Shown: positions 11,866 through 27,451, counted from the first letter of the stretch. The stretch: 64,000 nt of DNA from an uncultured Lachnospiraceae bacterium (GCA_947570615.1 CANOVJ010000002.1:66367-130366), one strand, 5' to 3'. Made by a program: numbers and translations. The notes: generated from the sequence alone by a model not told the origin.

Positions 11866-12570
11866 TTATCGATAAAGTCCGTTTTTATTGATAAATTCCA
11901 GCACGTTTTCGGGGAGCATATAGCGGACAGACCTTCCCTCCCGAAGCCGGGTTCTGATTTCCGTGGAGGAAAGATCAATCCGCCTTCCCGGAAGAAGCCT
12001 GATATCGGCCTGATATTTCTGCCGAAGGTGCGCCGCCATGCCCTCCACCGTATTTGGCGCTTCCTTCTTACCGCCGCCCTCCACCCGCATGGCGGCCGCA
12101 ATCGCACAGTTTTGAAAAATAAATTCCGGATTCCTCCACTTTTCCAGGATAAAGAGATTGTCCGCCCCGAGGATCAGATAATATCGGATATCCGGATTTT
12201 CCGCCCGCAGTCCGGCAAGGGTATCGCATGTATAGGTGGGTCCCTCTCTCTCGAGCTCTCTGGCTGAAAAGGAAAAGCATGGATTCCCTTCTATGGCCAG
12301 TCTGGTCATATGGGCCCGTATCTGTCCGTCCAGAATGGCGGAGGCATCCTTCATATACGAGTTCCCGCTGGGCATAAAAATAATCCGGTCGAGCCCTAAC
12401 GCCTCCCGGGCCATCTCGGCAAGCAGCAGATGGCCGTTGTGGACGGGATTGAAGGTTCCTCCCATAATTCCCACGTTTCTGACGGCGGGGATATGCTGAA
12501 TATCGGTTTCAGGACAGACCTGCCAGGCAGGCTGTGTGTTATTGCGGATCGCCTTATTCTGGCAGTTCAA
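11866..12570 (-). CDS. nadD: Nicotinate-nucleotide adenylyltransferase
   Basis: GGTFNPVHNGH, TYTCDTL, GADNL, LSSTEIR. Confidence 0.92.
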   Translation of the reverse strand: MNCQNKAIRNNTQPAWQVCPETDIQHIPAVRNVGIMGGTFNPVHNGHLLLAEMAREALGLDRIIFMPSGNSYMKDASAILDGQIRAHMTRLAIEGNPCFSFSARELEREGPTYTCDTLAGLRAENPDIRYYLILGADNLFILEKWRNPEFIFQNCAIAAAMRVEGGGKKEAPNTVEGMAAHLRQKYQADIRLLPGRRIDLSSTEIRTRLREGRSVRYMLPENVLEFINKNGLYR

Positions 12571-12844
12571 TTTTTTTGTGCTCCCTGCTTTCTTTATATA
12601 ATACGATTTTACGGCCGATCACCTGCACCACCGCAGAGCCTGTCCGGTCGGCGATAAAGCCCGCAATCTGCCTGGGATCCTCCATACAGTTTTTAAGCAC
12701 GGAGAGCTTGACAAGCTCTCTGGTATTGAAGGTTTCCCGGACCGCCTCCGTCACCTCCGGCGTCAGCCCGGATTTGCCGATCGCAAAGACCGGCTCCAGG
12801 CCCGCGGCCAGTCCTTTTAAATATGCCCGCTGTTTTGTCGTCAT
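12554..12844 (-). CDS. yhbY: RNA-binding protein YhbY (CRM domain)
   Basis: KQRAYLKGLA, IGKSG, RELVK, VQVIGRKIVLY. Confidence 0.92.
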   Translation of the reverse strand: MTTKQRAYLKGLAAGLEPVFAIGKSGLTPEVTEAVRETFNTRELVKLSVLKNCMEDPRQIAGFIADRTGSAVVQVIGRKIVLYKESREHKKIELPE

Positions 12845-12853
12845 TGATCTCTC

Positions 12854-14198
<1,345 letters not shown>

Positions 14199-14210
14199 TA
14201 TTGTAAAAAG

Positions 14211-14242
14211 AGGCTTCAAACAAGAAATACTGTTTGAAGCCT
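14211..14242 (-). terminator. Intrinsic terminator after rpmA
   Basis: aggcttcaaaca-8 nt-tgtttgaagcct with a T-run following on the minus strand. Confidence 0.7.
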
Positions 14243-14293
14243 GCCCGTTGCTTAACCTGGAAATATCCGGAAAAGCCGGATCTCCATCGTCTG

Positions 14294-14578
14294 TTATTTT
14301 TCTACAGGATATACGGAAGCCTGTTTCTTGTCTCTTCCTTTTCTCTCGAATCTGAGAACTCCGTCAACCAACGCAAACAATGTATCGTCGCCGCCACGTC
14401 CTACGTTTGTGCCGGGATGGATCTTCGTTCCGCGCTGCCTGTACAAAATATTTCCTGCCTTTACGAACTGGCCGTCGGCTCTCTTGGCGCCAAGTCGCTT
14501 GGACTCGGAATCTCTGCCGTTCTTGGTGGAACCAACACCTTTTTTATGAGCAAAAAATTGAAGGTTCAGCTTTAACAT
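14294..14578 (-). CDS. rpmA: 50S ribosomal protein L27 (with N-terminal pro-peptide)
   Basis: [24 protein letters not shown]. Confidence 0.98.
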
Positions 14579-14581
14579 GAT

Positions 14582-14911
14582 TTACACCTCCTTAAATTTC
14601 AGTCTTAAAAACTTTTTGCCGTACTGCTCTGCGACGCTCTGCAATCCCAGAACCATGGAATCGAGAAGAAGTCTGCCGCCTGCGTCGGGGCCGCCTGTAA
14701 AACGGCACCGGATCAGTCCACGCTTCCGGTCGCTTACGGTCTCCATCTGCGTATCCGTCAGCTTCTCCAGAGAATTGACGGTATTGATCACCAGCACGGA
14801 GACGGCGCTGCACACAATGTCGCTCCCCGCCTGTGCAAATCCCGCATGGCCCTCACAGATCATCTCCCTGTATTCCCCGTCTGTGGATCTGATTATGGTA
14901 ATAACAGTCAT
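14582..14911 (-). CDS. prp: Ribosomal-processing cysteine protease Prp
   Basis: GHAG and DIVCSAVS motifs, located between rplU and rpmA. Confidence 0.92.
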   Translation of the reverse strand: MTVITIIRSTDGEYREMICEGHAGFAQAGSDIVCSAVSVLVINTVNSLEKLTDTQMETVSDRKRGLIRCRFTGGPDAGGRLLLDSMVLGLQSVAEQYGKKFLRLKFKEV

Positions 14912-14917
14912 ACTCTT

Positions 14918-15223
14918 TTAAGCGTTGATCTTTTCAATCTTAACCTGTGTGTATGCCTGCCTGTGACCGTTTTTCTTATGATAACCGGTTTTTCTCTTAT
15001 ACTTGTAGACAATAACCTTGCGGCCTCTGCCCTGCTCGATCACAGATGCAGTCACGCTGGAATTGGCTACGTCGCCGGCAACCTTAAGCTCATTGTCGCT
15101 GATTGCGACAACCTGATCAAATGTCACAGTATCTCCCGGCTGTGCGTCGAGCTTTTCAACCTTAAGCACATCGCCCTCACAAACCTTATACTGCTTTCCA
15201 CCTGTTGCAATGATTGCGTACAT
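14918..15223 (-). CDS. rplU: 50S ribosomal protein L21
   Basis: MYAIIATGGKQYKV...GHRQAYT. Confidence 0.98.
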   Translation of the reverse strand: MYAIIATGGKQYKVCEGDVLKVEKLDAQPGDTVTFDQVVAISDNELKVAGDVANSSVTASVIEQGRGRKVIVYKYKRKTGYHKKNGHRQAYTQVKIEKINA

Positions 15224-15231
15224 ATGGCACC

Positions 15232-15327
15232 TCCTATACTAACCAGCCAAAGCCGGTTTTACTCGCTGACTGCGGCGGTTTTCGAAAAACGCCAAAAACA
15301 CTTAAGCCCCGTCATGCGGCATACTCA
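15232..15327 (-). promoter_or_regulatory. Probable L21 leader (structured 5' UTR of rplU)
   Basis: ~95-nt UTR between promoter and RBS, with gccgc...gcgagt elements; L21 leaders are known at this position in Firmicutes. Confidence 0.5.
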
Positions 15328-15330
15328 TAG

Positions 15331-15360
15331 AATATAGCATATTACAGTATATTCTGTCAA
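15331..15360 (-). promoter_or_regulatory. Sigma-A promoter of the rplU operon
   Basis: TTGACA-18 bp-TATATT with TG extension. Confidence 0.7.
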
Positions 15361-15363
15361 GAA

Positions 15364-15410
15364 AATTCCCCGGAAAAAACCTCTTTTTGCCAAAAGTTTT
15401 CCGGGGAATT
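15364..15410 (-). terminator. Terminator after the LacI gene
   Basis: aattccccggaaaa...ttttccggggaatt perfect 14-bp arms. Confidence 0.7.
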
Positions 15411-15427
15411 GTCAGAACCCTTCCCAT

Positions 15428-16462
15428 TCATCTGTTGTTCTCAGGGCAGCTCTCCTGGTAGCTGAAGCAGGCCGGTATCACCTGCATGGAGGGCATCTGG
15501 GCGTCGTTCTGGCCGTTGATTTTATCCAGTACCATTTTCAGACAGGCGGCCATCATATCCTCCACATTGATGTGGAGCATGGTCTGGCTTGGATAGAGCT
15601 CTCTTCCCAGTCTTTCGTCCCCATATGTCACAAGCTCTATCTGCTCCGGAATCCTGATTCCCCTGCGCAGCAGAATGTTCAGAAAGCCCATCAGGATATT
15701 GGAGTCCGTTATGAATACAGCTCCCGGAAGACCTGCCTCCATCATCTGCACACAGGCGGCCTTTCCGCCTTCGATATCAAGCGGGTCCTCCCTGATATAC
15801 TCCTGTCTGACATTCAGGCCGCATCCCTCGCACCCGTCGAGAAAGCCTGCCGCCAGCAGCGTATCCGCCTTGCTTCTCTTCTGATTCTGCAAAAGGCCGA
15901 CCTCATGCCAACCATGCCTCGCAAACAGATATGCCACCTTTTTTCCCGCCTCATAGTTATCCACATACACGGAGCTGTACTTTTCGTTGGGCCTGTTAAA
16001 GAGCACCACCGGCACGTCAAACTCGCTCTCCAGCAGGAAAAGCATGTCCTTCTCGGATAAACCGTTCACGATCACGCCGCCGCAGTATTTCCTGGAAAAG
16101 AGCTCCCTCCTGCCCTCCAGATCGTTCAGCAGATAGTGCTGCATCACAATATCAATCTGCAGCCCCTCCTCCAGCAGAACGCGCTGTAACCCGTAGATCA
16201 CTCTTCCCATTACAACCTTTGTCCGCTCCTCAAAAGGGCTGAACACATATATTTTCAGCCGCTCAGTCTGTCTGCGGTTTACGATCTGTTCCCTTCTGAA
16301 GCCATACGAAACGGCCTCCCGCAGGATTCTCTCCTGCGTCGCCTGCGAAATACGTAAAACATCCCCTTTTCCATTCAATACCATAGATATCGTCCCTGAG
16401 GACAGATTCATCCGTTCGGCAAGCGCTTTCACACTGATGGTCATGCCATTTTTTTTGGACAT
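15428..16462 (-). CDS. LacI-family transcriptional regulator
   Basis: N-terminal HTH (SVKALAERMNLSSGTISMVLNG...ISQATQERI); periplasmic-binding-like core (PVVLFNR, SVYVDNYEAG). Confidence 0.85.
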   Translation of the reverse strand: MSKKNGMTISVKALAERMNLSSGTISMVLNGKGDVLRISQATQERILREAVSYGFRREQIVNRRQTERLKIYVFSPFEERTKVVMGRVIYGLQRVLLEEGLQIDIVMQHYLLNDLEGRRELFSRKYCGGVIVNGLSEKDMLFLLESEFDVPVVLFNRPNEKYSSVYVDNYEAGKKVAYLFARHGWHEVGLLQNQKRSKADTLLAAGFLDGCEGCGLNVRQEYIREDPLDIEGGKAACVQMMEAGLPGAVFITDSNILMGFLNILLRRGIRIPEQIELVTYGDERLGRELYPSQTMLHINVEDMMAACLKMVLDKINGQNDAQMPSMQVIPACFSYQESCPENNR

Positions 16463-16556
16463 TATTATACCTGCCTGTTCCTATATGCTATGAATCAGGA
16501 ACGTCTCATAATCAACAATCCCGTAGTCCTATTGTAAGACATACAGCAGATTTGTG

Positions 16557-17789
16557 TCAAGTTTCATCCTTCTTTCGCCCAAAATCTGCCGATTTCATAA
16601 AGTGAAGCAAATATATTACACAAATCAGAGCCATCGGGGCGATATAGCACAGATACATTCCTCCATAGCCACAGCGGGCGATGAGACGGCCGGCCGCCAC
16701 GGTGGACACGCCCTGCCCCAAATCCGTCCCGATATAATAGGTGCTCGAGGCCGATCCTCTTCGTCCGCTTTCCACAGACTTTAAGCAGTTCGCCTGAATC
16801 GCCGGCTGAAGAAGCCCTACGCCGGAGGCCTTCAAGACAGCCGCGGCGGCAAAGCACAATGCCGCAGGCAGTATAATCTCTCCGGCGTTTGCGAGAAATA
16901 TAAGCGCCAGAATAATCAGAAGCGATCCGGGATAAAGCGCCCAGGCAAAGCCATGCGCATCCGTCACCCTGCCGAAAAGAATCCGGGAGAAGAAAAGGAC
17001 GGCGGCGCTGAGCGTGAAATACCACCCGATGCCTGAAAGCGCAAGCTCCCCCGCGTAGCTGGCGATGTAGCTCGTCTCGATTCCGTTGACGGCGGACAGG
17101 GCCACCGTCATAAGCGCATAGGGCAGAGCCTCTCGTGCAATCAGCTGGCCGGGAGAAAATTTCTGGTTTCCCCGCGTTTTTGCCCCGCCCGCTCCCGGCA
17201 GCGCAGAGAGAACCAGAACCGCCGCCAGGAGCAGAAACAATGCCGCCCCATAAAAAGGAATCGCACTGGAATGTGCGCCGGAGAGGGCAAGCCCGATTCC
17301 TGGTCCAATGGCGGCCGCGAGGGACTGACCAACCCCAAAATAGCCAAGCCCTTCTCCGATCCGGTTCTGCGGGATAAACTCAGACACATAAGCCATTGTA
17401 ACCGTAGTTACAATGCCGAAGGAAATTCCCTGGAGGATCCGGAGAATATAAAACACAGGGATGGACGATGAAAAGCCGTATCCCAACATTACCGCCATGT
17501 AAAGCCCAAGGAAGCATAAAAGCAGTCTTTTTCTGGAGAAATAATCGCTCACAAAACCGCTGAAAGGACGGATACACATGGAAGCAATGGACATTGTCCC
17601 CAGGATATTTCCCACCGAAACCACAGCGATATTTTTCTGCGCCAGAAATCCGGCCATCAGCGTGTTCGTCATATATAAGGTCATGGAAACCAGCAGATTA
17701 ACCAGAAAAAGCGTAATATAGCAGGCATTCCACAGCCTGCCGGCGTCGGGATTGCCGCCCTGGTTGCTGTTTGTCGCTGTCAAATTCAC
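16557..17789 (-). CDS. MFS transporter
   Basis: ~12 TM segments, GFVSDYFSRKR motif A, LRILQG, GRVTDAHG. Confidence 0.87.
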   Translation of the reverse strand: MNLTATNSNQGGNPDAGRLWNACYITLFLVNLLVSMTLYMTNTLMAGFLAQKNIAVVSVGNILGTMSIASMCIRPFSGFVSDYFSRKRLLLCFLGLYMAVMLGYGFSSSIPVFYILRILQGISFGIVTTVTMAYVSEFIPQNRIGEGLGYFGVGQSLAAAIGPGIGLALSGAHSSAIPFYGAALFLLLAAVLVLSALPGAGGAKTRGNQKFSPGQLIAREALPYALMTVALSAVNGIETSYIASYAGELALSGIGWYFTLSAAVLFFSRILFGRVTDAHGFAWALYPGSLLIILALIFLANAGEIILPAALCFAAAAVLKASGVGLLQPAIQANCLKSVESGRRGSASSTYYIGTDLGQGVSTVAAGRLIARCGYGGMYLCYIAPMALICVIYLLHFMKSADFGRKKDET

Positions 17790-18559
17790 ACTCTGATCTC
17801 CTCCTTGTGCTCAAGGAACCATATCATAAATTTTTCCAGTTGCGGATCCCACAGGTCATAGCTGTGCCCTCCCGGAAGGGACTGCCACAGCACCCTCATG
17901 CCGAGCTCCTTACAATATTCCACCGTCTCGACCATGGCGTCGTAGGCGATCGCATCCTCCGTTCCGCACAGGGTATAGAACACCGGAAGATCCTGTCCGG
18001 ATGCGGCGGCCTGCCTGGCAAGGTGGAGCAGATCGTACTGCGTGCCGGCGAGCTTTGTCAGATTGGCCGTCCCAAACCTTCTTTTATGGGGCTCGTCAAA
18101 AGACGGTCCGAAATCCGCTTTTAAAATACTTCCCCCGGAGAAGGGGGCGACGGCGGCGTAAAGCTCCGGATGGGTAAAACCCAGCTTCCAGGAGCCGAAA
18201 CCGCCCATGGAGCCTCCCGCCGCGATACTGTTCTCCTTTTTAAAGACCAGTCCCAGCAGATCGCTCAGATACGCCGGCAGCTCCAGGGTAACATAATCCA
18301 GATACCGTCCCATCTGCATATTGGAGTAAAAGCTCCCTTCCACAGAGGGAAGCACCACGACAAAGCCGTGTCTGACGGCGTAGCTCTCCACATTGGTGCA
18401 GCGCAGCACCTTCTCGCTGTCTTCTCCTCCCGCATGGAGAAACCAGAGCACATTGCACTCCTTCTGTCCGCTCTCGAGGAGCCGGTCCGGTATGATTACA
18501 TGGAATTCGTTGGATTTTGCCAGCATTTTTGAATAATAATTAATTTCTAATAAAGCCAT
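17786..18559 (-). CDS. Alpha/beta-hydrolase esterase (putative esterase family) 2
   Basis: LWFLHAGG, GGSMGG nucleophile elbow, CGTED (Asp), GGHSYDLW (His). Confidence 0.82.
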   Translation of the reverse strand: MALLEINYYSKMLAKSNEFHVIIPDRLLESGQKECNVLWFLHAGGEDSEKVLRCTNVESYAVRHGFVVVLPSVEGSFYSNMQMGRYLDYVTLELPAYLSDLLGLVFKKENSIAAGGSMGGFGSWKLGFTHPELYAAVAPFSGGSILKADFGPSFDEPHKRRFGTANLTKLAGTQYDLLHLARQAAASGQDLPVFYTLCGTEDAIAYDAMVETVEYCKELGMRVLWQSLPGGHSYDLWDPQLEKFMIWFLEHKEEIRV

Positions 18560-18573
18560 ATCTCTCCCCTTTC

Positions 18574-19368
18574 TCAGATCATGGCAAGAAATCTGCCAAT
18601 CCATTTGTCGGCGAACTCCCAGCAGTGAGGCGCCACCTCAGAATAAAACTCAAAGCCATAGGGATTTCCCTCCAGACTCAGGAAGTGCTGCCGCAGGGCC
18701 AGACAGACCTCGAAGCCGTGATCCTGCGTGCCCACCGCCAGTCTGATTCTGGGAAGGGGCTTTCCCTCCCTGACATTCTGTTCGGACTGCCAGAGCACAT
18801 CATACCTTGTCCCCTTCATCTCGCCGCTGTCCGGCGTCCCGAAGGTGAGCTCCGTGGTATCCATACATCCCTCCGGGACCCAGATCTTTCCCACCGCCTG
18901 CCGCAGATGCTCCAGGGGGATCACGGAGCTGGTGGATATGATCAGGGCCTGGGAATATTTCTCAGGGTACATCATTGCATACGTCAGCGCCCCGGAACCG
19001 CCCATGGAAAAACCGGTGATCCAGGTTTTTTCCCGTTTCGTGGACAATTTGGGAAACAGCGTATGGAGAAATCCGGGAAGCTCCTCCACCACAAAATCCT
19101 CGATCAGCTCTCCTCTCTTCTCGTTATACCATCTGCTCATTCCGGCGGAGGGCATGACGGCCACCAGATTGTTTTTCCTGGCATGCTCTTCTATGCTGGA
19201 ATTTCTGAGCATATCCGTATAGTCCGCGCACCCGCCGTGCAGACAGTACAGCACCGGGATTTCCCCTTCCCCGGCCTGTGCCATATAGTCTCTCTCAGGC
19301 ATGGCCAGACAGACCTTTGTCTCCCGCCCCAGCGCCTTCGATGTCATACTTAACTTAATCAACGCCAT
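18574..19368 (-). CDS. Alpha/beta-hydrolase esterase (putative esterase family) 1
   Basis: VLYCLHGG, GFSMGG, VGTQD (Asp), APHCWEF (His). Confidence 0.82.
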   Translation of the reverse strand: MALIKLSMTSKALGRETKVCLAMPERDYMAQAGEGEIPVLYCLHGGCADYTDMLRNSSIEEHARKNNLVAVMPSAGMSRWYNEKRGELIEDFVVEELPGFLHTLFPKLSTKREKTWITGFSMGGSGALTYAMMYPEKYSQALIISTSSVIPLEHLRQAVGKIWVPEGCMDTTELTFGTPDSGEMKGTRYDVLWQSEQNVREGKPLPRIRLAVGTQDHGFEVCLALRQHFLSLEGNPYGFEFYSEVAPHCWEFADKWIGRFLAMI

Positions 19369-19383
19369 TTTTACTCCCTCCTG

Positions 19384-20271
19384 TCAGCCCTTGATGGAGC
19401 CTATCATGACTCCTTTGGCAAAATATTTCTGTATAAAAGGATAGATACATAAGATCGGCAGTGTGGATACCACAATGGTACAATACTGGATCAGAAGCGT
19501 ATAAATGGAAAACTGGGAGGAGACGTCGCTGGAGGCGTTGGTCAGACTCATGTTCCCCACGATGAGAATCTCCCTCAGAATCAGCTGCAGCGGGAACAAA
19601 TCCCGGTCGTTGAAGTAGAGCGAGGGCAAAAACCAGGAATTCCACTGTGCCACAGCGATAAACAACACCACCACGGAGATGGTCGCTTTGGACAGGGGCG
19701 CGATGATTCTGAAAAAGATGCAGAAATCCCCCGCCCCGTCCAGCCTGGCCGACTCCTCCAGCGAATCCGGTATTCCCATAAACGCAGTTCGCAGTACGAT
19801 CAGATTAAACACATTGATCGCCCCCGGAATGATCATGACCAGACGGCTGTCGATCAGCCCCAGTCTGGATATCAGGATATAATTGGGTATCAGCCCCCCG
19901 TTAAAGAGCATGGTAAAGGAAATCAGAAGCATACAGAAATTTTTGGGCGCAAAATATTTTCTGGAAAAAATGTAGGCGGCCACGGAAGTGGCAAAAATAC
20001 CGACGATGGTCCCCGCCGTCACATAAAAAATCGTGTTCCCGTAGCTTTTCCAGATACTTTTGTTTCCAAATACAAGCTCATATCCCGAAAGCGTTATCTC
20101 CCCCGCCGGCCAGAACAGCATGCTTCTGCTGTTGATCAGGGAAACCGGATCCGAAAAGGAAGCCATAACCGTATACAGGATCGGCGCAAGGCAGATAAAG
20201 GATATGGCGGTCAAAAACAGGACGTTGACAACACGGAATATTTTTCTCCCCGGAGTTTCTTTTACCTTCAT
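19384..20271 (-). CDS. Carbohydrate ABC transporter permease (LplC-like)
   Basis: EAA motif SLEESARLDGA; PFIQKYFAKGVMIGSIKG. Confidence 0.92.
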   Translation of the reverse strand: MKVKETPGRKIFRVVNVLFLTAISFICLAPILYTVMASFSDPVSLINSRSMLFWPAGEITLSGYELVFGNKSIWKSYGNTIFYVTAGTIVGIFATSVAAYIFSRKYFAPKNFCMLLISFTMLFNGGLIPNYILISRLGLIDSRLVMIIPGAINVFNLIVLRTAFMGIPDSLEESARLDGAGDFCIFFRIIAPLSKATISVVVLFIAVAQWNSWFLPSLYFNDRDLFPLQLILREILIVGNMSLTNASSDVSSQFSIYTLLIQYCTIVVSTLPILCIYPFIQKYFAKGVMIGSIKG

Positions 20272-20281
20272 TCCATCTCTC

Positions 20282-21184
20282 CTAAAACAAACTGGTTTCT
20301 GAAAACTTTTTACTTATCATGTTGGCGATCAGGATCAGGATAAAGCCGATGACAGAGTTGAACAATCCCACCGCCGTACTGTAAGAGTAATCTCCGCCCT
20401 GCAGGCCTGCCCTGTATATATAAGAAGAAATAACATCCGCCACGTCATAGGTGGAAGGGGCGTAGAGCAGGATAACCTTTTCATAGTTGACATTCATAAT
20501 CTGCCCCATCCGCAGGATCAGCATGATAATGACGGTGGAGGAGATTCCCGGCAGGGTGACGTAAAGCCACTGCTTCCAGTAACCCGCTCCGTCGATCTTC
20601 GCCGCCTCATAAAGCTCCTGATCCACCGACGAGAGCGCCGCCAGATAAATAATACTGTTAAAGCCGATCGTCTGGATGATGTTGGTGATAATGAAGATCG
20701 GGATAAAGGCCCCCGTATCCGTTATCATGCTTTCATAGCTGCCCCCCAGACTGTTGACGATCTGTGTCACAAAGCCGCGGGAATCCGTAAAGTTTCTGAT
20801 CAGCCCGCAAAATACCACTGTCGAGAGAAAATAGGGCATATAGGTGATCGTCTGTACGGTTTTCTTAAATTTCTGCCCCCGCAGCTCATTGAGAAGACAG
20901 GCCAGAATAATCGGGGCCGGAAAGGAAAACAAAAGATCCAGCAGACTGATGCGCAGGGTGTTGATCAGGGTTCTGAAAAAATAAGGCCCCTCAAAAAACC
21001 TTTTAAAGTTATCCAGACCCACAAACCTGCTTCCAAAGATTCCCTTTACGATCTTATACTTCTGGAAGGCCATAATCAGGCCTCCCATCGGCAGAAAACT
21101 GAAGATCAGAAAGTAAATCATAATTGCCAGGGCGGCAAAATACATCAGCTTATGCCGCCTGAAATTTTTCTTCAATCCTTTCAC
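20282..21184 (-). CDS. Carbohydrate ABC transporter permease (LplB-like)
   Basis: YMPYFLSTVV, ELYEAAKIDGA, DVISSYIY, GLFNSVIG. Confidence 0.92.
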   Translation of the reverse strand: MKGLKKNFRRHKLMYFAALAIMIYFLIFSFLPMGGLIMAFQKYKIVKGIFGSRFVGLDNFKRFFEGPYFFRTLINTLRISLLDLLFSFPAPIILACLLNELRGQKFKKTVQTITYMPYFLSTVVFCGLIRNFTDSRGFVTQIVNSLGGSYESMITDTGAFIPIFIITNIIQTIGFNSIIYLAALSSVDQELYEAAKIDGAGYWKQWLYVTLPGISSTVIIMLILRMGQIMNVNYEKVILLYAPSTYDVADVISSYIYRAGLQGGDYSYSTAVGLFNSVIGFILILIANMISKKFSETSLF

Positions 21185-21211
21185 GCAAAACCTCCCTGGG
21201 AACGCGCTCTT

Positions 21212-22900
21212 CTATCTCGCATTATATCGGTCCAATGCGGACTGAAACGCGCTTTTGCATTCTTCAACGTTCATATCCTTAACTGTCTGAATAAAATTGT
21301 CGAAGCCGTCGAAGGATTCCTGACCCGTGATGTATTTAACGGTCATTTCATCCAGGTACGTATTGATATCCGGCATATAACGGTTGTAAACGTCCAGCTC
21401 ATCCTCCAGCAGACTGATGTTGCCGCTGATACGCCATTGATTATCTCCCTGCTCTCTGTAGAGCCGGTCGGCCGCGATATTAAACTCATCCACCATGGTG
21501 GAGCCCACGTCAAAGCTTCCGGGATATCCGGTTCCCACCGTGGCGTAACGCATGTTGATAAAGTTTTCGTTGGGATTGTTGGTGATATTGTCCATCCAGG
21601 TTTTGGTCCCGTCTTCGGCCACCTCGTAGGTGGTTCCCTCCACGCCCCAGCAGGAGAGATCGCTGGCTTCCCGGGTATAATACTGATCCCAGTACCTTAA
21701 GGCGGATTCAAGATCCTCACAGTCCGCAGAAATAATCACCGCGTTTAACTGAATTTTACCGTTTTCGTAGTATTCATGCGTCACTGTCCCCTTTTCCAGA
21801 ACAGGCATGGGAGCAACAACATATTCAAAGTCTTCCTTAAACTCCGAACCGATGGAGGCAAGCATCCCGGCCATGGAATAAGCCGTCACGCAGGAGCCGC
21901 AGTCAGCCGAAGAATAGGTGGAAATCTGCGCGTTGATATCCGTCACGGACTGGAAATCCGGATCAATCAGGCCTTCCTTATACCACTGTTCCATCATCTC
22001 CAGATAGGCCCGGAAAGACTCCGTCGCATCCACGGGGGCATAGAGCACCTTTCCGTCGATCTGATAAAAGGGAAAATCACTGCCCCAGTAATCGCGGTAG
22101 CCAAAACCGTAGCCGATGGTCCACATATTATTCTGGGACATTCCGGTGGTTCCCGGAACAAAGCCTTTGGTAATTCCGCACTGCTCCTTAAAGGCGGTCA
22201 GTACATCGTGCCATTCATCATAGGTCTCGGGCACGTCCATCCCCACATCGTCAAGAAGATCCTTCCGGATCAGAACGCCTGCAAAGATCTCTGTCTCCTC
22301 GTCATCCTCAAAGAAAATCGGCAGTCCGGTAATCCTTCCGTCGTCCGTATAAACTTCTTTCTGCCGGAACTCGGAGGCTTCAAGCTGTTTCTTAAAATTC
22401 GGCATCAGATCCAGATACTCGGCTATATCCACGGATATCCCGTCATTTAACAGCCCCACTGCTCCCCCTTCATAGCCGCCCACGCCGCCGCTTATAAAAT
22501 CCGGAATACTGCCGGAGGAGATCAGAAGATTGAGCTGCGTGTTCTCCTCCCCCAGAATGGGAGTGGTAAAATCAATATGTACGCCCGTCTTCTCTTCCAT
22601 CTGCTGAGCCGTCAGCGTCTCATTCCAGTCGTCGATGAGAATTCCCATACAGGTATGAGATCCCTTAAACATATTCCAGGTGATCCCTTCCTCTGAGATC
22701 CTCTCAATTCCGGCGTCTGCCTGTACATCCGCATTTTCATCCGTACCCGTATCGGCGTCAGCACTGTCCCCGCCGTCTGTGGTCTTTGTTCCGGTATCCG
22801 CCTCCCCTGTACTGCCGTCCTGCGGCGTCGAGCCACAGCCGTTTACAAGAAACGCTGCCGTCAGCGCCAGGGCAAGCACTGATAAAACCCTCCTTTTCAT
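21212..22900 (-). CDS. Carbohydrate ABC substrate-binding lipoprotein (LplA-like)
   Basis: Lipobox LVNGC; IRKDLLDDVGMDVPETYDEW; WGVEG. Confidence 0.88.
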   Translation of the reverse strand: MKRRVLSVLALALTAAFLVNGCGSTPQDGSTGEADTGTKTTDGGDSADADTGTDENADVQADAGIERISEEGITWNMFKGSHTCMGILIDDWNETLTAQQMEEKTGVHIDFTTPILGEENTQLNLLISSGSIPDFISGGVGGYEGGAVGLLNDGISVDIAEYLDLMPNFKKQLEASEFRQKEVYTDDGRITGLPIFFEDDEETEIFAGVLIRKDLLDDVGMDVPETYDEWHDVLTAFKEQCGITKGFVPGTTGMSQNNMWTIGYGFGYRDYWGSDFPFYQIDGKVLYAPVDATESFRAYLEMMEQWYKEGLIDPDFQSVTDINAQISTYSSADCGSCVTAYSMAGMLASIGSEFKEDFEYVVAPMPVLEKGTVTHEYYENGKIQLNAVIISADCEDLESALRYWDQYYTREASDLSCWGVEGTTYEVAEDGTKTWMDNITNNPNENFINMRYATVGTGYPGSFDVGSTMVDEFNIAADRLYREQGDNQWRISGNISLLEDELDVYNRYMPDINTYLDEMTVKYITGQESFDGFDNFIQTVKDMNVEECKSAFQSALDRYNAR

Positions 22901-22963
22901 TTACGCTCCCTCCTTCATTTATTTAGCAATATTTTAGCTATAAAGCTATTATAATATGCTTAA

Positions 22964-22992
22964 ATTATATTATTATTTAGCTTTAGTGTCAA
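22964..22992 (-). promoter_or_regulatory. Sigma-A promoter of the sugar ABC-esterase operon
   Basis: Consensus TTGACA-17 bp-TATAAT on the minus strand. Confidence 0.8.
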
Positions 22993-23081
22993 TATATATT
23001 GCTAAATAATATCCGGTCCTTTACACATTTTTAACAGGAAAGCATGAAAGAAAAGGATAAATATATGCATAACGTCAAAAA

Positions 23082-23116
23082 ATCACCTCCGCCCGTTTCT
23101 GGCGGGCAGAGGTGAT
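23082..23116 (-). terminator. Terminator after cstA
   Basis: atcacctc.gcccg/cgggc.gaggtgat hairpin followed by a T-run on the minus strand. Confidence 0.75.
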
Positions 23117-23145
23117 CAGAATACCTTTGCTTGAAAATCAGATTT

Positions 23146-24861
23146 TTATGCTGTCTTTTTCTTCCCAAACAGCGTCTGAACGCCCTCAATCACAAGCAGG
23201 ACCGCAAGGATGATCAGAAGCACTGCCAGAATGGTCTGCGCGTAAGGGCCCCAGTCGGCGCCGCCCGCAGAGATCAGGCCAACCTGATTCTTAACGGTGA
23301 TGATCAGGGAGGCGATGGTAACAACCATCATGAAAGCCATGGGGAATAAGAACATCTTATTGTTCTTCCCGATATTGCCAAGCCATGTGGCGACAGCCAG
23401 AAGTCCAAGTCCGGCCAGCAGCTGGTTGGCGGAACCGAACAGACCCCAGATCTTGGCGTATCCGGTCATACCAAGGACGATACCGATCACAACCGTGATG
23501 GCAGTTGCGAAATAAGGATTTACCAGCAGCTTTTTGTAGCCTTCCTTCACATCGCCAACCGTCTGTCCCGGCTCAAGCCAGAACTCCTGGAACATGAAAC
23601 GCGCAAGACGCGTGGCCGTATCCAGAGAGGTCAGGCAGAATGCGGAGTAGGTGAGGATCAGCAGGGTATACAGGATATTCTCAAGCCCTGCAAGACCGGG
23701 AATCGCAGCCACCATTGCGGCGATTCCGCCTGCAAAAATGTCGGTGGCTCCCGCCGTATGACCGGTCTGTCTCGCGTAGGCGATGGCGCATACGGTGAGT
23801 ACCGCCAGCACACACTCAAGAAGCATTCCGCCGTAGGCGATGGGCTTTGCATCCGCCTCCTTATCGAGCTGTTTGGAGGTGGTTCCGGAGGAAACCAGCG
23901 AATGGAAACCGGAGATGGCGCCGCAGGCAACCGTCGTAAACAGGATCGGGAACAGGTACTGCATCCCGTTTCCGTTGTCCACCGCAAATCCGGTGAAGGC
24001 CGGGAAAAGCTCGGGATCGATATTGGGATGGGCTCCCACCACGCCGATGAAGGCCACGGCCAGCATGGCATAGAGCAGGAAGGAGCTTAAGTAATCGCGG
24101 GGCTGTAACAGGATCCACACGGGAGCCACCGACGCGATGGCGATATAGATTCCCACGATGATCATCCAGGTGTTGGTGGAGAGATAGAGCGGATGGAAAT
24201 TCATACCGATCGCCATGATGATCACGATCGCCACAATGCCCAGAACCGTGGAAATGCCCATGGACAGGTTGCGGCGGTATACGCAGAAGCCGAACACGAT
24301 GGCGATCACGATAAATAACAGGGATACCATCGCAACGGACGCGTTGGATGCGCTCGCCGCCATATCCAGAGCGCCCGCCTCGTCATACTTTGCGCCGAAG
24401 GTGGTGGCCACGATGGAGGCAAAGGCCGCTACCACCAGAAGCAGCGTCAGATAGGCGAAGATCAGGAAAAGCCTTTTGGCTCTCTTGCTCATGTTGGCGG
24501 AAATTACCTCGCCGATGGACTGTCCCTTATGGCGCAGGGATGCGAACAGCGCGCCGAAATCGTGGACGCCGCCGAAGAAGATACCGCCCACTAAAATCCA
24601 CAGGACAACGGGCAGCCATCCGAATAAAGCCGCATTGATGGGGCCGGTGATAGGGCCTGCCCCGGCGATGGATGAAAAATGATGGCCCATAAGAACGGGC
24701 GCTTTGGCCGGGACATAGTCAACACCATCCGACATGGTATGCGCAGGCGTCTTTTCTTTGCTCTCACCCACGCCCCACTGTTTGCAGAGCCATCTTCCGT
24801 AGAAGATATAACCGCACAGTAAAATGGCCACAGAGATGAGAACCAGTAATAATGTGTTCAT
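23146..24861 (-). CDS. cstA: Carbon starvation protein A family transporter
   Basis: DGVDYVP, GHHFSSIAGAGPI, GGVHDF, ACGAISGFHSLVSSGTT, TSLDTATR. Confidence 0.93.
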   Translation of the reverse strand: MNTLLLVLISVAILLCGYIFYGRWLCKQWGVGESKEKTPAHTMSDGVDYVPAKAPVLMGHHFSSIAGAGPITGPINAALFGWLPVVLWILVGGIFFGGVHDFGALFASLRHKGQSIGEVISANMSKRAKRLFLIFAYLTLLLVVAAFASIVATTFGAKYDEAGALDMAASASNASVAMVSLLFIVIAIVFGFCVYRRNLSMGISTVLGIVAIVIIMAIGMNFHPLYLSTNTWMIIVGIYIAIASVAPVWILLQPRDYLSSFLLYAMLAVAFIGVVGAHPNIDPELFPAFTGFAVDNGNGMQYLFPILFTTVACGAISGFHSLVSSGTTSKQLDKEADAKPIAYGGMLLECVLAVLTVCAIAYARQTGHTAGATDIFAGGIAAMVAAIPGLAGLENILYTLLILTYSAFCLTSLDTATRLARFMFQEFWLEPGQTVGDVKEGYKKLLVNPYFATAITVVIGIVLGMTGYAKIWGLFGSANQLLAGLGLLAVATWLGNIGKNNKMFLFPMAFMMVVTIASLIITVKNQVGLISAGGADWGPYAQTILAVLLIILAVLLVIEGVQTLFGKKKTA

Positions 24862-25391
24862 AAAAATCGTCTCCTTTTCTTGTTAGAGTTGAATAAAACA
24901 TTTTTCAGAACTTTCTCCACACATCTTCCGCTGCGGTTGGTGGTGATCCGGTTATCCGAAACCTCCAGAACCGCCGTGTGGAAGTCCATCCATCCGTGCA
25001 GAGAAAATCGAAAACTTTTGTAGATGCGGCATTTCCTCACAGCCGCCCTCGCCTCCCCCTGACAGGTATCGCAGATAAAGACAGGGGTGATATAGGTGTA
25101 CATATGCCCCGGCCCGATGTGGGCCCGCTTCATGCCGTCCTCATGGGCAAAATCCCTGCATTTCTCAAAAATATCTTCTGTGAGCTGTTCCACGTTGAAT
25201 AAATATACAAACTCTTCGCAGTTGGCCGTCCAGAGATTCGCCTGTCTGGAAAGGACATATTTTTCGGTGTGTTCAAAAAACTCACAGATTGCTGTGAGAT
25301 AAGGCTGTTCCCCGTCGGACATCGTTATATCGAAGTAAGCCCCGTATCCTCTGAGGAGCCGGTCAGTCGCCGTTTCTCTGTCGTATTGCAT
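24858..25391 (-). CDS. Hypothetical protein coupled to cstA
   Basis: 177-aa ORF; its stop overlaps the cstA start (ATGA-type); promoter TTGAAA-18 bp-TATAAT at 25432-25461. Confidence 0.7.
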   Translation of the reverse strand: MQYDRETATDRLLRGYGAYFDITMSDGEQPYLTAICEFFEHTEKYVLSRQANLWTANCEEFVYLFNVEQLTEDIFEKCRDFAHEDGMKRAHIGPGHMYTYITPVFICDTCQGEARAAVRKCRIYKSFRFSLHGWMDFHTAVLEVSDNRITTNRSGRCVEKVLKNVLFNSNKKRRRFL

Positions 25392-25522
25392 AAAAATACA
25401 GAATCCTTTCATAAATTGAACACATTAAACAATTATAGCACTGTTTTCGTGTCTTTTTCAATAATTTTTTATAATTTCTTATGAAATTCCTTATAAATCT
25501 AAAGATTTATTTATAAACAGGC

Positions 25523-25562
25523 AAAAAAGGCTTCCGGCGTGGCCGCCGCCGAAGCCTTTTGA
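25523..25562 (-). terminator. Terminator after rng
   Basis: aaaaaggcttc...gaagcctttt hairpin. Confidence 0.65.
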
Positions 25563-25568
25563 AAAAAT

Positions 25569-26774
25569 TCAGAGCGATTTCCGGATAAACTCCGAAAGGG
25601 GCCTGCTGATCTTTTTGCGGGTGATCTCCACGATTCCCAGCGCCGTCATGTCCACCAGCCGGGTTTCCACCTTATCCTCGCGCAGATACGCCGCCAGATG
25701 CTCCATCAGAAGCTGCTTATCCTGCTCGGAATCCATGTTGATGAAATCCACCATGATCATTCCGGAGTAATTGCGCAGGCGAAGCGCCCTGGCGATCTCC
25801 TTTGCCGCCTCCAGATTGATCTGAAGGTAGAGATTTTTTCTTACAATACGTCTGTCCCCGCTGGCTTTCCCGGTGTTGACGTCGATCACCACCATGGCCT
25901 CGGTGGGCTCGATCACCAGATAGCCGCCGCTGGGCAGCCAGACCCTTTTTTCAAGCGCCCGGCTTAAATGGGTCTTAAGGCTGTAGAGCGCGCTCAGGGA
26001 CACCAGGGGATCCTGATAATACCGGATGGGGACCGGTACAAAAGGAGAAAAAAGCTCTTTTATTTTTTCATCGTCCGTGATAATTTCGTCGTAATCCGAA
26101 AGGGGAATGCTCCTGATCACACCGGTCAGCTCCGGCTGCGAGCAGTACAGACAGGTGTGGCAGATGCGGGTTTTGTATATGCCCAGCAGCCTGTGGAAGG
26201 TCCTGATAAACTCCTCCATCTCCTCGAAGAGAGGCGCTGAGTCCGCAAGGGCTCCGGCATTGGTGCGGATGATAAAGCCGTAGTCCTCACAGCCGGCAAG
26301 CTCTGCGCTTTTTTCCCTGCGCAGTTCCCTGGCGGCCTGCCTGAGCTCCCTGGCCTTATCGGTGGGAAGCTTGCCGGAGCAGGTAATCTTCGGGCTGTCC
26401 AGGCGGCAGACACAGTAGGTTCCCGCCAGGGAGAGCCTGGCCGTGGCGGCAGGCAGCTTGGTTTTCAGGGCTTTTGTGGCGATCTGGACCGGAAGCATAT
26501 CTCCGTGCTTTAGCCGTCCGTCGTATTCCCGGTTGATCACAAGCGGCTTTGCACACTCGTTCAGGGGCAGAAAGACCTTCTTGCCGGGCGCGATGGAGAC
26601 AAAGGCCGCCCCGATGCCGGGGACAATCTCCTCCACACGTCCGATGTAGATGTTTCCCAGGTTCTCCTCCTCCCCCGGCCAGGGACTGACCCGGATCATC
26701 TGGGGATGCCCGGCGTCGTCCATCTGAAACAGCAGAAGGACCTGTTCCCACTGGGTAACGATTATTTTTCCCAT
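25569..26774 (-). CDS. rng: Ribonuclease E/G family
   Basis: S1 domain GNIYIGRV; SGGYLVIEPTEAMVVIDVNTG; LRNYSGMIMVDFI. Confidence 0.9.
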   Translation of the reverse strand: MGKIIVTQWEQVLLLFQMDDAGHPQMIRVSPWPGEEENLGNIYIGRVEEIVPGIGAAFVSIAPGKKVFLPLNECAKPLVINREYDGRLKHGDMLPVQIATKALKTKLPAATARLSLAGTYCVCRLDSPKITCSGKLPTDKARELRQAARELRREKSAELAGCEDYGFIIRTNAGALADSAPLFEEMEEFIRTFHRLLGIYKTRICHTCLYCSQPELTGVIRSIPLSDYDEIITDDEKIKELFSPFVPVPIRYYQDPLVSLSALYSLKTHLSRALEKRVWLPSGGYLVIEPTEAMVVIDVNTGKASGDRRIVRKNLYLQINLEAAKEIARALRLRNYSGMIMVDFINMDSEQDKQLLMEHLAAYLREDKVETRLVDMTALGIVEITRKKISRPLSEFIRKSL

Positions 26775-27451
26775 ATCAGCGGCACCAGCCTTTCTTCCTC
26801 GCGCCGGTACAGCTCCAGCCTGTGAACCATAAGCGCGTAAGGGGGAAGCTCCCACTTAAGGGTGGCGAAAAAGCGCTCGAGTACGAAGGAGGGCCTGATA
26901 TTCCCCCCGCTGCTGGCGTTTAAGAGCATACAGACCGCCGGGCAGGGATTCGTATCTATATGCAGGTCATAGATGCTCTCCTTCAGATTGATTTCCTTCT
27001 CGCCCTTTTTCGTCTTTTTCACCACAGGAATTTCTTCCTGCTCATAGAAAGCCGCCAGCTTTTCCTGCCAGTGATCGGGCAGGGAAATCCCGGGGCGGAA
27101 GGTGACCCGGTAGGAAGCCGCGGCCACGCTGGCCATGGCGTTGCCCGCCCCCGCAGGAAGAAGCCGAACCTTAAGGATCTCGATTCCCTCCGCCATCACC
27201 CCCTGCAGACGCTCCCGCATCTCGTCCTCCCCCAAAAAGGAGGTCACCTCGATGTCCATATATTCTCCCTGGCTTGTGTGTCCCACCGACAGGGGAGAGG
27301 CAAAGGACATGATCTGATGGGGGTTAAAGCCCTCCGAGTAGGCGATGGGAATGCTGCTGCGCCGGATGGCCTTCTGAAAATAACGCATCACATCCAGATG
27401 CCCGATGAATTTCAGCGGGCCGTTTTTTGAAAATTTGATTCTCACCTTCAT
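26762..27451 (-). CDS. Radical SAM-associated protein (TIGR03936/DUF2344-like)
   Basis: KFIGHLD, YSEGFNPH, LSVGHTS.GEY motifs; coupled to the radical SAM gene. Confidence 0.85.
   Translation of the reverse strand: MKVRIKFSKNGPLKFIGHLDVMRYFQKAIRRSSIPIAYSEGFNPHQIMSFASPLSVGHTSQGEYMDIEVTSFLGEDEMRERLQGVMAEGIEILKVRLLPAGAGNAMASVAAASYRVTFRPGISLPDHWQEKLAAFYEQEEIPVVKKTKKGEKEINLKESIYDLHIDTNPCPAVCMLLNASSGGNIRPSFVLERFFATLKWELPPYALMVHRLELYRREEERLVPLIWEK

Follow-up and report, generated by a model that had tools for sequence, protein, structure and literature searches.

Why would a bacterium string a sugar importer together with two esterases and an efflux-type transporter, but no enzyme that cleaves a glycosidic bond? 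The question is raised by a block of seven genes at positions 15428-22900 of a 64-kb stretch of DNA (the window; GCA_947570615.1 CANOVJ010000002.1:66367-130366) from an uncultured Lachnospiraceae bacterium. The host genome spans 4.05 Mb in 112 contigs and is 94.8% complete, and genome absences reported below are valid for an assembly of that completeness. The answer we favor, at a probability of about one half, is that the block is an accessory operon under LacI-type control, through which the cell would take up an esterified sugar and deacylate it in the cytoplasm; the sugar is most likely an acylated sucrose of natural or dietary origin. This reading is built on sequence comparison, and its sucrose part comes from an orthologous locus, L055, whose string joins a kinase to a phosphorylase bearing a sucrose-6F-phosphate-specific motif.

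Calling of open reading frames (ORFs) placed seven collinear ORFs on the minus strand, and Pfam matched their families. The run that the sequence-only reading had described, a solute-binding protein (SBP), two permeases of an ATP-binding cassette (ABC) system, two esterases and a major facilitator superfamily (MFS) transporter at tight spacing, is present with every ORF where it had been placed, followed by a LacI-type regulator with a divergent helix-turn-helix (HTH). In order of transcription, with amino-acid identity to the L055 counterpart:

21212-22900, minus strand: SBP, extracellular solute-binding lipoprotein of 562 amino acids, large and LplA/AlgQ-like (PF01547); 63%
20282-21184, minus strand: ABC permease A, MalF/UgpA-like (PF00528, 57.3 bits); 77%
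19384-20271, minus strand: ABC permease B, MalG/UgpE-like (PF00528, 24.0 bits, under the 26.4 cut-off; aligns to GlcU, UgpE and MalG models, also below cut-off); 77%
18574-19368, minus strand: esterase 1, a cytoplasmic PF00756 serine esterase of 264 amino acids (67.4 bits); 75%
17786-18559, minus strand (open frame to 18604): esterase 2, 257 amino acids from Met16 (PF00756, 37.1 bits); 73%
16557-17789, minus strand: MFS_1 transporter of 410 amino acids, efflux-like (PF07690, 141.5 bits); 60%
15428-16462, minus strand: LacI/GalR-family regulator of 344 amino acids with the divergent HTH (Peripla_BP_3, 68.2 bits); 56%

With esterase 2 starting at 18559, the intergenic gaps are 27, 10, 15 and 14 nucleotides (nt), followed by a 4-nt overlap and by 94 nt before the regulator gene. 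None of the seven proteins gave a Pfam match to a glycoside hydrolase (GH), a kinase or an ABC ATPase. GH domains were likewise absent from the flanking genes (11866-26855), and with them the backbone-cleaving GH that characterizes a polysaccharide utilization locus for acetylated plant glycans.

When metagenomes were scanned with aligned esterase 2 relatives, a single locus came back, L055, which holds counterparts of all seven window proteins at 56-77% amino-acid identity in the same gene order, except that the regulator gene lies upstream. Because synteny is kept across all seven genes at this divergence, the arrangement stands above chance, and the evidence supports reading the block as one coherent unit that would import a carbohydrate ester and de-esterify it in the cytoplasm, and that includes an efflux-type MFS transporter. 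Past the MFS gene, L055 continues with four further genes at gaps of -4, 0, 18 and 11 nt:

L055 9876-10733: NIF3/DUF34-like gene, the first past the MFS gene
L055: esterase of carbohydrate esterase family 2 (CE2), with CE2_N and GDSL domains (2WAO at 7e-24, Est2A at 4e-15)
L055: P-loop kinase-like protein of 316 amino acids, with weak AAA_18, Zeta-toxin and APS-kinase matches
L055: GH13_18 phosphorylase of 569 amino acids (6S9U, E = 4.7e-160)

A gap of 312 nt follows the phosphorylase gene, then a 2-hydroxyacid dehydrogenase gene and a GH3 gene, the latter 1.3 kb beyond the string. The phosphorylase contains KNMYYQ and so fits the KxxYYQ loop-A motif, which according to the accessible passages of PMC7178133 (see also PMC6720575) distinguishes the R. 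gnavus and I. coccineus phosphorylases that act strictly on sucrose-6F-phosphate. Among the solved-structure matches of the kinase at E<=1 there was no AgaSK chain; we relate it to the AgaSK-type sucrose kinase because of its position and of a kinase-phosphorylase fusion in another genome (G250, below), not because of solved structures.

Homologues of the L055 kinase, phosphorylase, CE2 and NIF3-like proteins were not found in the window's genome at E<=1e-3. Since phosphorylase and kinase are missing from the window, we class it as no more than the core of such a locus, for transport and ester cleavage, and not as a member of the pathway; three GH32 genes in the genome could handle sucrose. 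Since a kinase gene and a GH13_18 phosphorylase gene prolong the string in L055, the window holds a reduced form rather than a design that dispenses with glycoside cleavage.

The pairing of kinase and phosphorylase extends well beyond L055. With the L055 phosphorylase as query (E<=1e-30), a GH13_18 match was found in 36 of the 300 genera of the family that were sampled. A long form was full-length in 10 genera (59-67% identity) and cut by a contig end in an eleventh (G222), and a short form without about 60 residues occurred in nine; the corresponding insertion of the long-form enzymes is absent from characterized phosphorylases. In all 11 long-form loci and one other GH13_18 locus, genes were typed by BLAST comparison with the proteins of the window and of L055, and 58 selected ORFs were run through Pfam; ORFs of the compared loci followed a longest-ORF rule, under which some genes were missed until tblastn was run. 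Counting L055, the kinase-like gene adjoins the phosphorylase gene in 12/12 long-form loci, and an SBP and two permeases open most of the strings. Esterase genes stand in the same string in eight of these twelve:

L055: two PF00756 esterases and the CE2 enzyme
L059: COesterase, beta-lactamase-fold protein, alpha/beta hydrolase, PF00756 and GDSL+BD-FAE
L060: PF00756
L061: GDSL and PF00756
L063: three PF00756 esterases
L066: CE2, COesterase, GDSL and beta-lactamase-fold protein
L067: S15+BD-FAE
L068: PF00756

A kinase homologue (41-48% identity) was also adjacent in all four of the nine short-form loci that were examined, and none of these four carries homologues of the L055 esterases, CE2 enzyme, NIF3-like gene or MFS transporter. 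The locus in G250 is of raffinose type: AraC, SBP, permease, permease, a GH36 alpha-galactosidase and a kinase-phosphorylase fusion, which is a single ORF of 789 amino acids (L075 5216-7585; G250:C29). Open frames of 818-834 amino acids in G165 and G252 suggest the same fusion there. Given the fused ORF in G250 and the esterase-rich loci, we suggest that the kinase may feed the phosphorylase after a trimming step. The trimming position is held by the alpha-galactosidase in the raffinose locus and by esterases in the esterase-bearing long-form loci, and the pair of kinase and phosphorylase has the appearance of a module that would process sucrose behind a trimming enzyme. As a separate observation, a divergent NIF3/DUF34-like gene recurs in L055, L061 (4616-5440), L066, L067 (11445-12338) and L068, with two copies each in L066 (5023-5841 and 10968-11834) and L068 (5589-7361).

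Can the two window esterases act inside the cell? Both clear the PF00756 cut-off of 22 bits. By eye, neither N-terminus (MALIKLS... in esterase 1; MALLEINYY... from Met16 in esterase 2) has a hydrophobic leader, and alignment to cytoplasmic homologues begins at residue 1 or 16. The start of esterase 2 is most likely Met16 (18559, 257 amino acids), because four relatives of 256-257 amino acids in a large protein database all begin at its equivalent; the longest frame (17786-18604) would overlap esterase 1 by 31 nt, and the predicted start lies 15 codons further in. The catalytic motifs are GFSMG, GTQD and APH in esterase 1 and GGSMG, GTED and GGH in esterase 2, and the Ser (GxSxG), Asp (G-T-x-D) and His of both are in register with 4RGY and 7L0A. 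The earlier observation that the esterases lack signal peptides and keep Ser/Asp/His was thus borne out. E-values against solved structures were as follows:

4RGY: esterase 1, 5e-27; esterase 2, 1e-36
7L0A: esterase 1, 6e-21; esterase 2, 1e-31
6VH9 (FphF): esterase 1, 1e-20; esterase 2, 3e-30
2UZ0 (EstA): esterase 1, 9e-19; esterase 2, 1e-20
4ROT: esterase 1, 2e-19; esterase 2, 1e-16

The best solved relatives of both are therefore small cytoplasmic 'tributyrin esterases'. Feruloyl and CE1 entries match weakly (7XRT, 4.5e-9; the XynZ feruloyl esterase 1JJF, 5e-7; 5VOL, 6e-7; the CE1 protein 7B5V, 0.004), the CE1 and CE2 specificity labels used here being those of CAZy. According to the accessible parts of bioRxiv 10.1101/2020.04.21.054437, FphF has the triad Ser121/His234/Asp205 and forms a dimer in solution, and EstA is active against tributyrin as well as acetylated substrates. 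The genome has no PF00756 genes other than those for esterases 1 and 2, which share 30% identity. In a tree of 37 family members they fall in separate clades on long branches, apart from a clade of esterases in housekeeping contexts; the tree was built by a quick method with Shimodaira-Hasegawa-like approximate likelihood ratio (SH-aLRT) support only, and its deep branching is unsure. The two appear to be old paralogues. A role as siderophore esterase (the enterochelin esterase model scores 23.5 bits, cut-off 222) was rejected because the transporter is of the sugar-type CUT1 rather than the FecCD type.

The importer has the features of a CUT1-type system: a family-1 SBP with a lipoprotein signal, two BPD_transp_1 permeases and, as a candidate partner, a MalK-type ATPase encoded apart from any permease. 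The SBP matches PF01547 at 32.2 bits (cut-off 26), its N-terminus MKRRVLSVLALALTAAFLVNGC reads by eye as a lipoprotein-like signal ending in LVNGC, and its best solved relatives are AlgQ1/AlgQ2 (E = 2e-24). Permease A matches the NCBIfam UgpA/MalF models below their cut-offs. On another contig, an orphan ORF of 369 amino acids (G000:C14:10076-11185) combines ABC_tran, OB_MalK and TOBE_2 in the manner of MsmX/MalK. No permease or SBP was found among the nine surrounding ORFs scanned, and a second MalK-like ORF lies 8 kb away. One MsmX-type ATPase commonly serves many CUT1 transporters in Firmicutes. Because such ATPases are shared and an orphan one is encoded elsewhere, the absence of an ATPase gene from the operon is ordinary. 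The emphasis that the sequence-only reading had laid on a block devoid of GH, kinase and ATPase thus holds as a description by Pfam but not as a peculiarity: an orphan ATPase is encoded elsewhere in the genome, and the ortholog carries both a kinase and a GH13_18 phosphorylase.

For the MFS transporter, the best solved relative is NorA (2e-10), aligned over the full length (residues 24-389), and the top NCBIfam matches are efflux-type models, all below cut-off. Outside L055 the only homologue found is in locus L054 (34% identity). Efflux-type transporters nevertheless recur in loci of this kind, as MFS_1 in the window, L055 and L054 and as MatE in L059, L062 and L035, a recurrence that fits an efflux role for the window protein. 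The regulator matches Peripla_BP_1 at 38 bits in addition to Peripla_BP_3. Its HTH is weak, PF00356 scoring 15.5 bits (cut-off 27, E = 0.016), and the alignments to whole-length LacI-family models of NCBIfam (RbsR, fructose/sucrose repressor, Cra) start at residue 9-14, all below cut-off.

The transcription signals delimit the unit as follows:

23075-23117, minus strand: terminator of the upstream gene cstA, marking the upstream unit boundary; 15-bp G+C-rich stem and U run (-29.2 kcal/mol, z -5.8, 0/200 shuffles fold as well)
22920-23008: three GCTAAATA motifs around the operon promoter, a candidate operator (23001-23008, plus strand; 22974-22981, minus strand; 22920-22927, minus strand)
22964-22992, minus strand: operon promoter TTGACA-17-TATAAT, 12/12 consensus matches, 64 nt upstream of the SBP start
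16531-16560, minus strand: internal regulator promoter TTGACA-18-TACAAT, 11/12 matches, with its -35 box overlapping the MFS stop codon
15359-15410, minus strand: terminator after the regulator gene, marking the downstream boundary and abutting the rplU promoter; 14-bp stem and UUCUU (-28.5 kcal/mol, z -4.4, 0/200 shuffles fold as well)

Given the promoter position and the flanking hairpin terminators, the transcription unit probably runs from about 22992 to 15359. The promoter that had been assigned to the LacI regulator from the sequence is indeed in place, and the regulator could be read from both promoters. The terminator after the regulator gene was not picked up by the pattern scan, its loop probably being longer than the scan permits. 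The 94-nt spacer between the MFS and regulator genes holds no strong terminator (z -2.1, no U run), and terminator-like pattern matches inside the operon are short stems within coding sequence, none of them convincing. Directly past the operon terminator and before rplU lies a TTGACA-18-TATATT promoter with a TG extension (15331-15360).

GCTAAAWA has three matches in the 64-kb window, every one of them between 22920 and 23008, and the GCTAAATA motif recurs around the L055 promoter (L055 3370-3545). We infer that this cluster is a candidate operator of the LacI-type regulator. The usual LacI-family operators are palindromes; GCTAAATA is unlike them, which fits the divergent HTH.

How widespread is the operon? 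In the window, the 10.2 kb between rng and rplU hold a gene for 184 amino acids (24858-25412), cstA (23146-24861) and the operon (split region 15224-25568). In a genome of the same genus (G247), a spacer of 123 nt separates rng from rplU-prp-rpmA-obg-nadD, and this one same-genus genome searched has no relative of esterase 2 or the SBP. The operon is a rare accessory insertion in the rng-rplU cluster. With one genome taken for each other genus of the family, esterase 2 homologues (E<=1e-20) were found in 51 of 300 genera, all at <=37% identity, and SBP homologues (E<=1e-40) in 26, all at <=36%. A scan of a collection of species-representative genomes returned no relatives of esterase 2. The same scan with an SBP alignment returned eight loci at <=32% identity, in which tblastn found no esterase, MFS, kinase or phosphorylase homologues. 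Against 5.8 billion proteins, esterase 2 had only five clusters of relatives, at 99, 92, 73, 72 and 72% identity.

More distant esterase loci give a broader view. From 77 esterase 2 matches we took 20 regions, namely all seven tandem pairs and the best-scoring singles, and scanned about 230 of their 342 ORFs with Pfam; the choice was non-random, and the fractions that follow describe the chosen set and are not frequencies. Esterases were tied to sugar transport or metabolism in 11 of the 20 (L036, L037, L038, L039, L040, L041, L043, L046, L049, L053 and L054) and had housekeeping or unrelated neighbors in eight. In three a classical GH was found no more than about 7 kb away (GH2 in L046, GH31 in L049 and L053), and an esterase accompanied by MatE or MFS but no sugar transporter was seen in L035, L047 and L050. 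For the refuting condition attached to the sequence-only reading, that homologous loci always include a GH gene, the outcome is mixed: the one ortholog does, and most of the distant esterase loci examined do not.

Two loci, L054 (G105:C72), one of the 20, and L062 (G017:C1), examined alongside the long-form loci, each combine two PF00756 esterases, permeases, a large SBP and an efflux transporter with a different GH13_18 enzyme of 486-487 amino acids, and no kinase homologue was found in either. The loop of the L054 enzyme, KAQRYQ, fits none of the loop-A motifs in the accessible passages of PMC7178133 and PMC6720575. L054 also carries a CE4 deacetylase, an esterase of polyhydroxybutyrate-depolymerase type and a 495-amino-acid protein with a GMSMG motif. 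Other arrangements in the set include tandem PF00756 pairs beside mannose-6-phosphate isomerase and ROK kinase genes (L037 9205-12717, G060; L040 7309-10886, G300), an esterase pair behind a CUT2 ABC system and a glyoxalase-PfkB fusion (L036), and a single PF00756 esterase adjoining GH31 (L049 7124-10457, G186; L053 5488-10397, G057), L053 having in addition a GPH-type MFS_2 transporter, an AraC regulator and a BD-FAE esterase.

From these elements we propose a mechanism in which each biochemical step, the substrate and the direction of MFS transport are predictions. The lipoprotein SBP would capture an acylated sucrose outside the cell, and the two permeases, powered by the orphan MsmX/MalK-type ATPase encoded elsewhere, would import the ester. 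In the cytoplasm, the two EstA/FrmB/FphF-type esterases would strip the acyl groups, presumably at different positions or of different kinds, while the NorA-like MFS transporter might expel the released acid or excess amphiphile. The LacI-type repressor would free the promoter upon binding an intermediate. In L055, the freed sucrose would pass to the P-loop sucrose-kinase-like enzyme and on to the strict-type sucrose-6F-phosphate phosphorylase, yielding glucose-1-phosphate and fructose-6-phosphate. In the window's organism, the sugar core would go to GH32 enzymes or leave the cell, because the genome is without the kinase/phosphorylase module. The case for a sucrose core is that the L055 string joins a KxxYYQ phosphorylase to the kinase.

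A more ambitious version of this scheme, to which we give only tentative credence, is an undescribed bacterial sucrose-ester pathway comprising ABC uptake, regiospecific stepwise deacylation, acid efflux and processing by kinase and phosphorylase, with the window as a 'strip-only' variant. Should such a pathway exist, plant acylsugars, phenylpropanoid sucrose esters and dietary sucrose fatty-acid or acetate-isobutyrate esters would be possible, equally speculative substrates.

Several points weigh against an acylated sucrose as the substrate. The most serious concerns the step from L055 to the window, the weakest link in the argument: the sucrose connection comes from one ortholog with 63% SBP identity, a distance at which SBP specificity can change. 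Neither a GH13_18 KxxYYQ enzyme nor a kinase of the sucrose-6F-phosphate phosphorylase pathway was found in the window or its genome. The nearest solved SBP relatives, AlgQ1/2, bind uronate-containing oligosaccharides, the similarity being low. All NCBIfam matches of the seven proteins stay under the curated cut-offs, and therefore none of the seven is an equivalog of a named protein. The surroundings of L055 include a GH3 gene, and CE2 enzymes are chiefly familiar from acetylated plant glycans. In four of the 12 long-form loci (L064, L065, L069 and L070) no esterase was seen. Finally, the accessible parts of PMC6521584 leave open whether the 6F-phosphate required by the phosphorylase is a product of the AgaSK kinase.

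A rival reading is that the operon serves plant cell-wall oligosaccharides (acetylated xylo-, manno- or pectic), imported and then deacetylated or deferuloylated, with the glycosidases encoded elsewhere. PF00756 does include feruloyl and acetyl-xylan esterases, with weak matches to 1JJF, 5VOL, 7B5V and 7XRT, the L055 CE2 enzyme resembles CtCE2 and the Est2A acetyl-xylan esterase, and a GH3 gene follows downstream; acetylated-mannan ABC loci with intracellular esterases are also known from Roseburia. However, Pfam found no GH10, GH43, GH26, GH113 or GH130-type domain in the 14 ORFs of L055 or in the scanned parts of the 11 long-form loci (58 selected ORFs, the rest typed by BLAST). The glycoside-cleaving enzyme within the L055 string is instead of the sucrose-6F-phosphate-phosphorylase type and comes with a kinase, and the closest solved esterases are of the short-chain 'tributyrin' type, not CE1 feruloyl esterases. 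We consider the plant-wall explanation unlikely. Acetylated xylo- and manno-oligosaccharides, feruloyl esters and O-acetyl sialic acid, the substrates first suggested for this block, thus give way to a sucrose core, to which the comparative evidence seems to point. The underlying idea of an import and de-esterification module has fared better, since the block forms a coherent unit, CE2 belongs to the L055 string and esterase-rich sugar-ABC loci recur, although the ortholog does have the glycoside-cleaving partners that the module was thought to do without.

The sugar could also be an acylated alpha-glucoside other than sucrose, such as glucosylglycerol, glucosylglycerate or a glycolipid deacylation product, or some other esterified small glycoside. 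GH13_18 includes glucosylglycerol and glucosylglycerate phosphorylases (accessible passages of PMC7178133), the long-form enzymes have their insertion of about 60 residues, and L054 and L062 show that an esterase-rich locus can carry a different GH13_18 enzyme, with KAQRYQ in L054, and no kinase homologue. We nonetheless hold this to be rather improbable: the L055 enzyme has KxxYYQ and matches the strict I. coccineus phosphorylase at 4.7e-160, and the L055 kinase is 41-48% identical to that of raffinose-type sucrose loci, in one case fused to the phosphorylase. Slightly less credible again is detoxification of xenobiotic or antimicrobial esters by general esterases and an efflux pump that just happen to neighbor a sugar transporter. 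The operon's esterases being the genome's only two PF00756 genes would suit such a role, as would the NorA-like MFS transporter, the promiscuity of the solved relatives FphF and FrmB (accessible parts of bioRxiv 10.1101/2020.04.21.054437) and the pairs of esterase with MatE or MFS in L035, L047 and L050. Against it stand the tight spacing, a single strong promoter with flanking terminators, conservation of the seven-gene set with L055 and, in the quick tree, the long branches of both esterases away from the housekeeping-context clade. That the genes are simply adjacent, with separate transcripts and unrelated roles, is very improbable: the regulator gene has its own promoter, but gaps of 27, 10, 15, 14 and -4 nt, the lack of a convincing internal terminator and synteny at 56-77% protein identity speak for a unit.

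If the acylated-sucrose reading is true, some bacteria of the family carry dedicated machinery for sucrose esters, whose microbial breakdown is without a known genetic basis in the literature searched. Among such esters are common food emulsifiers as well as defense and phenolic compounds that are abundant in plants. The pathway would also supply a long-sought physiological source of sucrose-6F-phosphate for these phosphorylases; in the accessible passages of GH13_18 reviews that source is described as unknown, with only a kinase link mentioned. With its seven genes, the operon of the window makes a compact case for testing the reading by simple assays.

How does the proposed system compare with known ones? 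At the level of single proteins, the window esterases are like EstA, FrmB and FphF of S. pneumoniae and S. aureus (2UZ0, 7L0A, 6VH9) in Pfam family, length, lack of a signal peptide and catalytic triad. The matches are remote (E between 1e-20 and 1e-31), and tandem old paralogues in a sugar ABC operon differ from single proteins.

The mannan locus of Roseburia intestinalis reportedly combines the intracellular esterases RiCE2 and RiCE17 with GHs, GH130-type phosphorylases and SGNH-type esterases. The window shares with it the ABC import of an acylated oligosaccharide and cytoplasmic deacylation by two esterases, as we reconstruct them, and L055 also has a CE2 enzyme. In contrast to that locus, Pfam found no GH, GH130-type phosphorylase or SGNH-type esterase in the window.

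The cah/act castalagin operon of Lachnospiraceae is likewise sparse and strain-specific and directs an ABC transporter and intracellular hydrolases at a sugar-core polyester (accessible parts of bioRxiv 10.64898/2026.10.05.756759). Its substrate was identified by experiment, whereas that of the window is predicted from sequence. Identity of the two systems was ruled out, as the DAPG-hydrolase family, short-chain dehydrogenase/reductase (SDR) and other alpha/beta hydrolase described for cah/act in those parts are absent from the window by Pfam.

The closest parallel is Rgaga1 of Ruminococcus gnavus E1, which comprises an AraC regulator, an ABC transporter, the AgaSK alpha-galactosidase/sucrose kinase and a sucrose-6F-phosphate phosphorylase and serves raffinose and sucrose (accessible parts of PMC6521584). 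L055 would follow the same logic of ABC import of a substituted sucrose, trimming to sucrose, and a kinase with a GH13_18 KxxYYQ phosphorylase, and its kinase is homologous to the one beside the phosphorylase in the raffinose-type locus of the family. That locus, in G250, has the organization of Rgaga1, except that in Rgaga1 the kinase is fused to the alpha-galactosidase instead (PMC6521584, same parts). In the window and L055, esterases (two PF00756, plus CE2 in L055) replace the GH36 alpha-galactosidase; the window further differs in its LacI-type rather than AraC-type regulator, its large SBP of 560 amino acids, the efflux-type MFS transporter in the string and the lack of kinase and phosphorylase. 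The word 'esterase' has no occurrence in the Rgaga1 paper (PMC6521584), and a limited search of literature listings found no description of esterase sets coupled to a sucrose kinase/sucrose-6F-phosphate phosphorylase or of a bacterial sucrose-ester locus. The parts of the system all come from well-known families, and Gram-positive gut bacteria are known to import substrates through ABC transporters and then deacylate them in the cytoplasm. The new element, as far as the literature was searched, is the joining of esterase sets to the sucrose kinase/sucrose-6F-phosphate phosphorylase pair, and the interest of the window lies mainly in what its relatives reveal.

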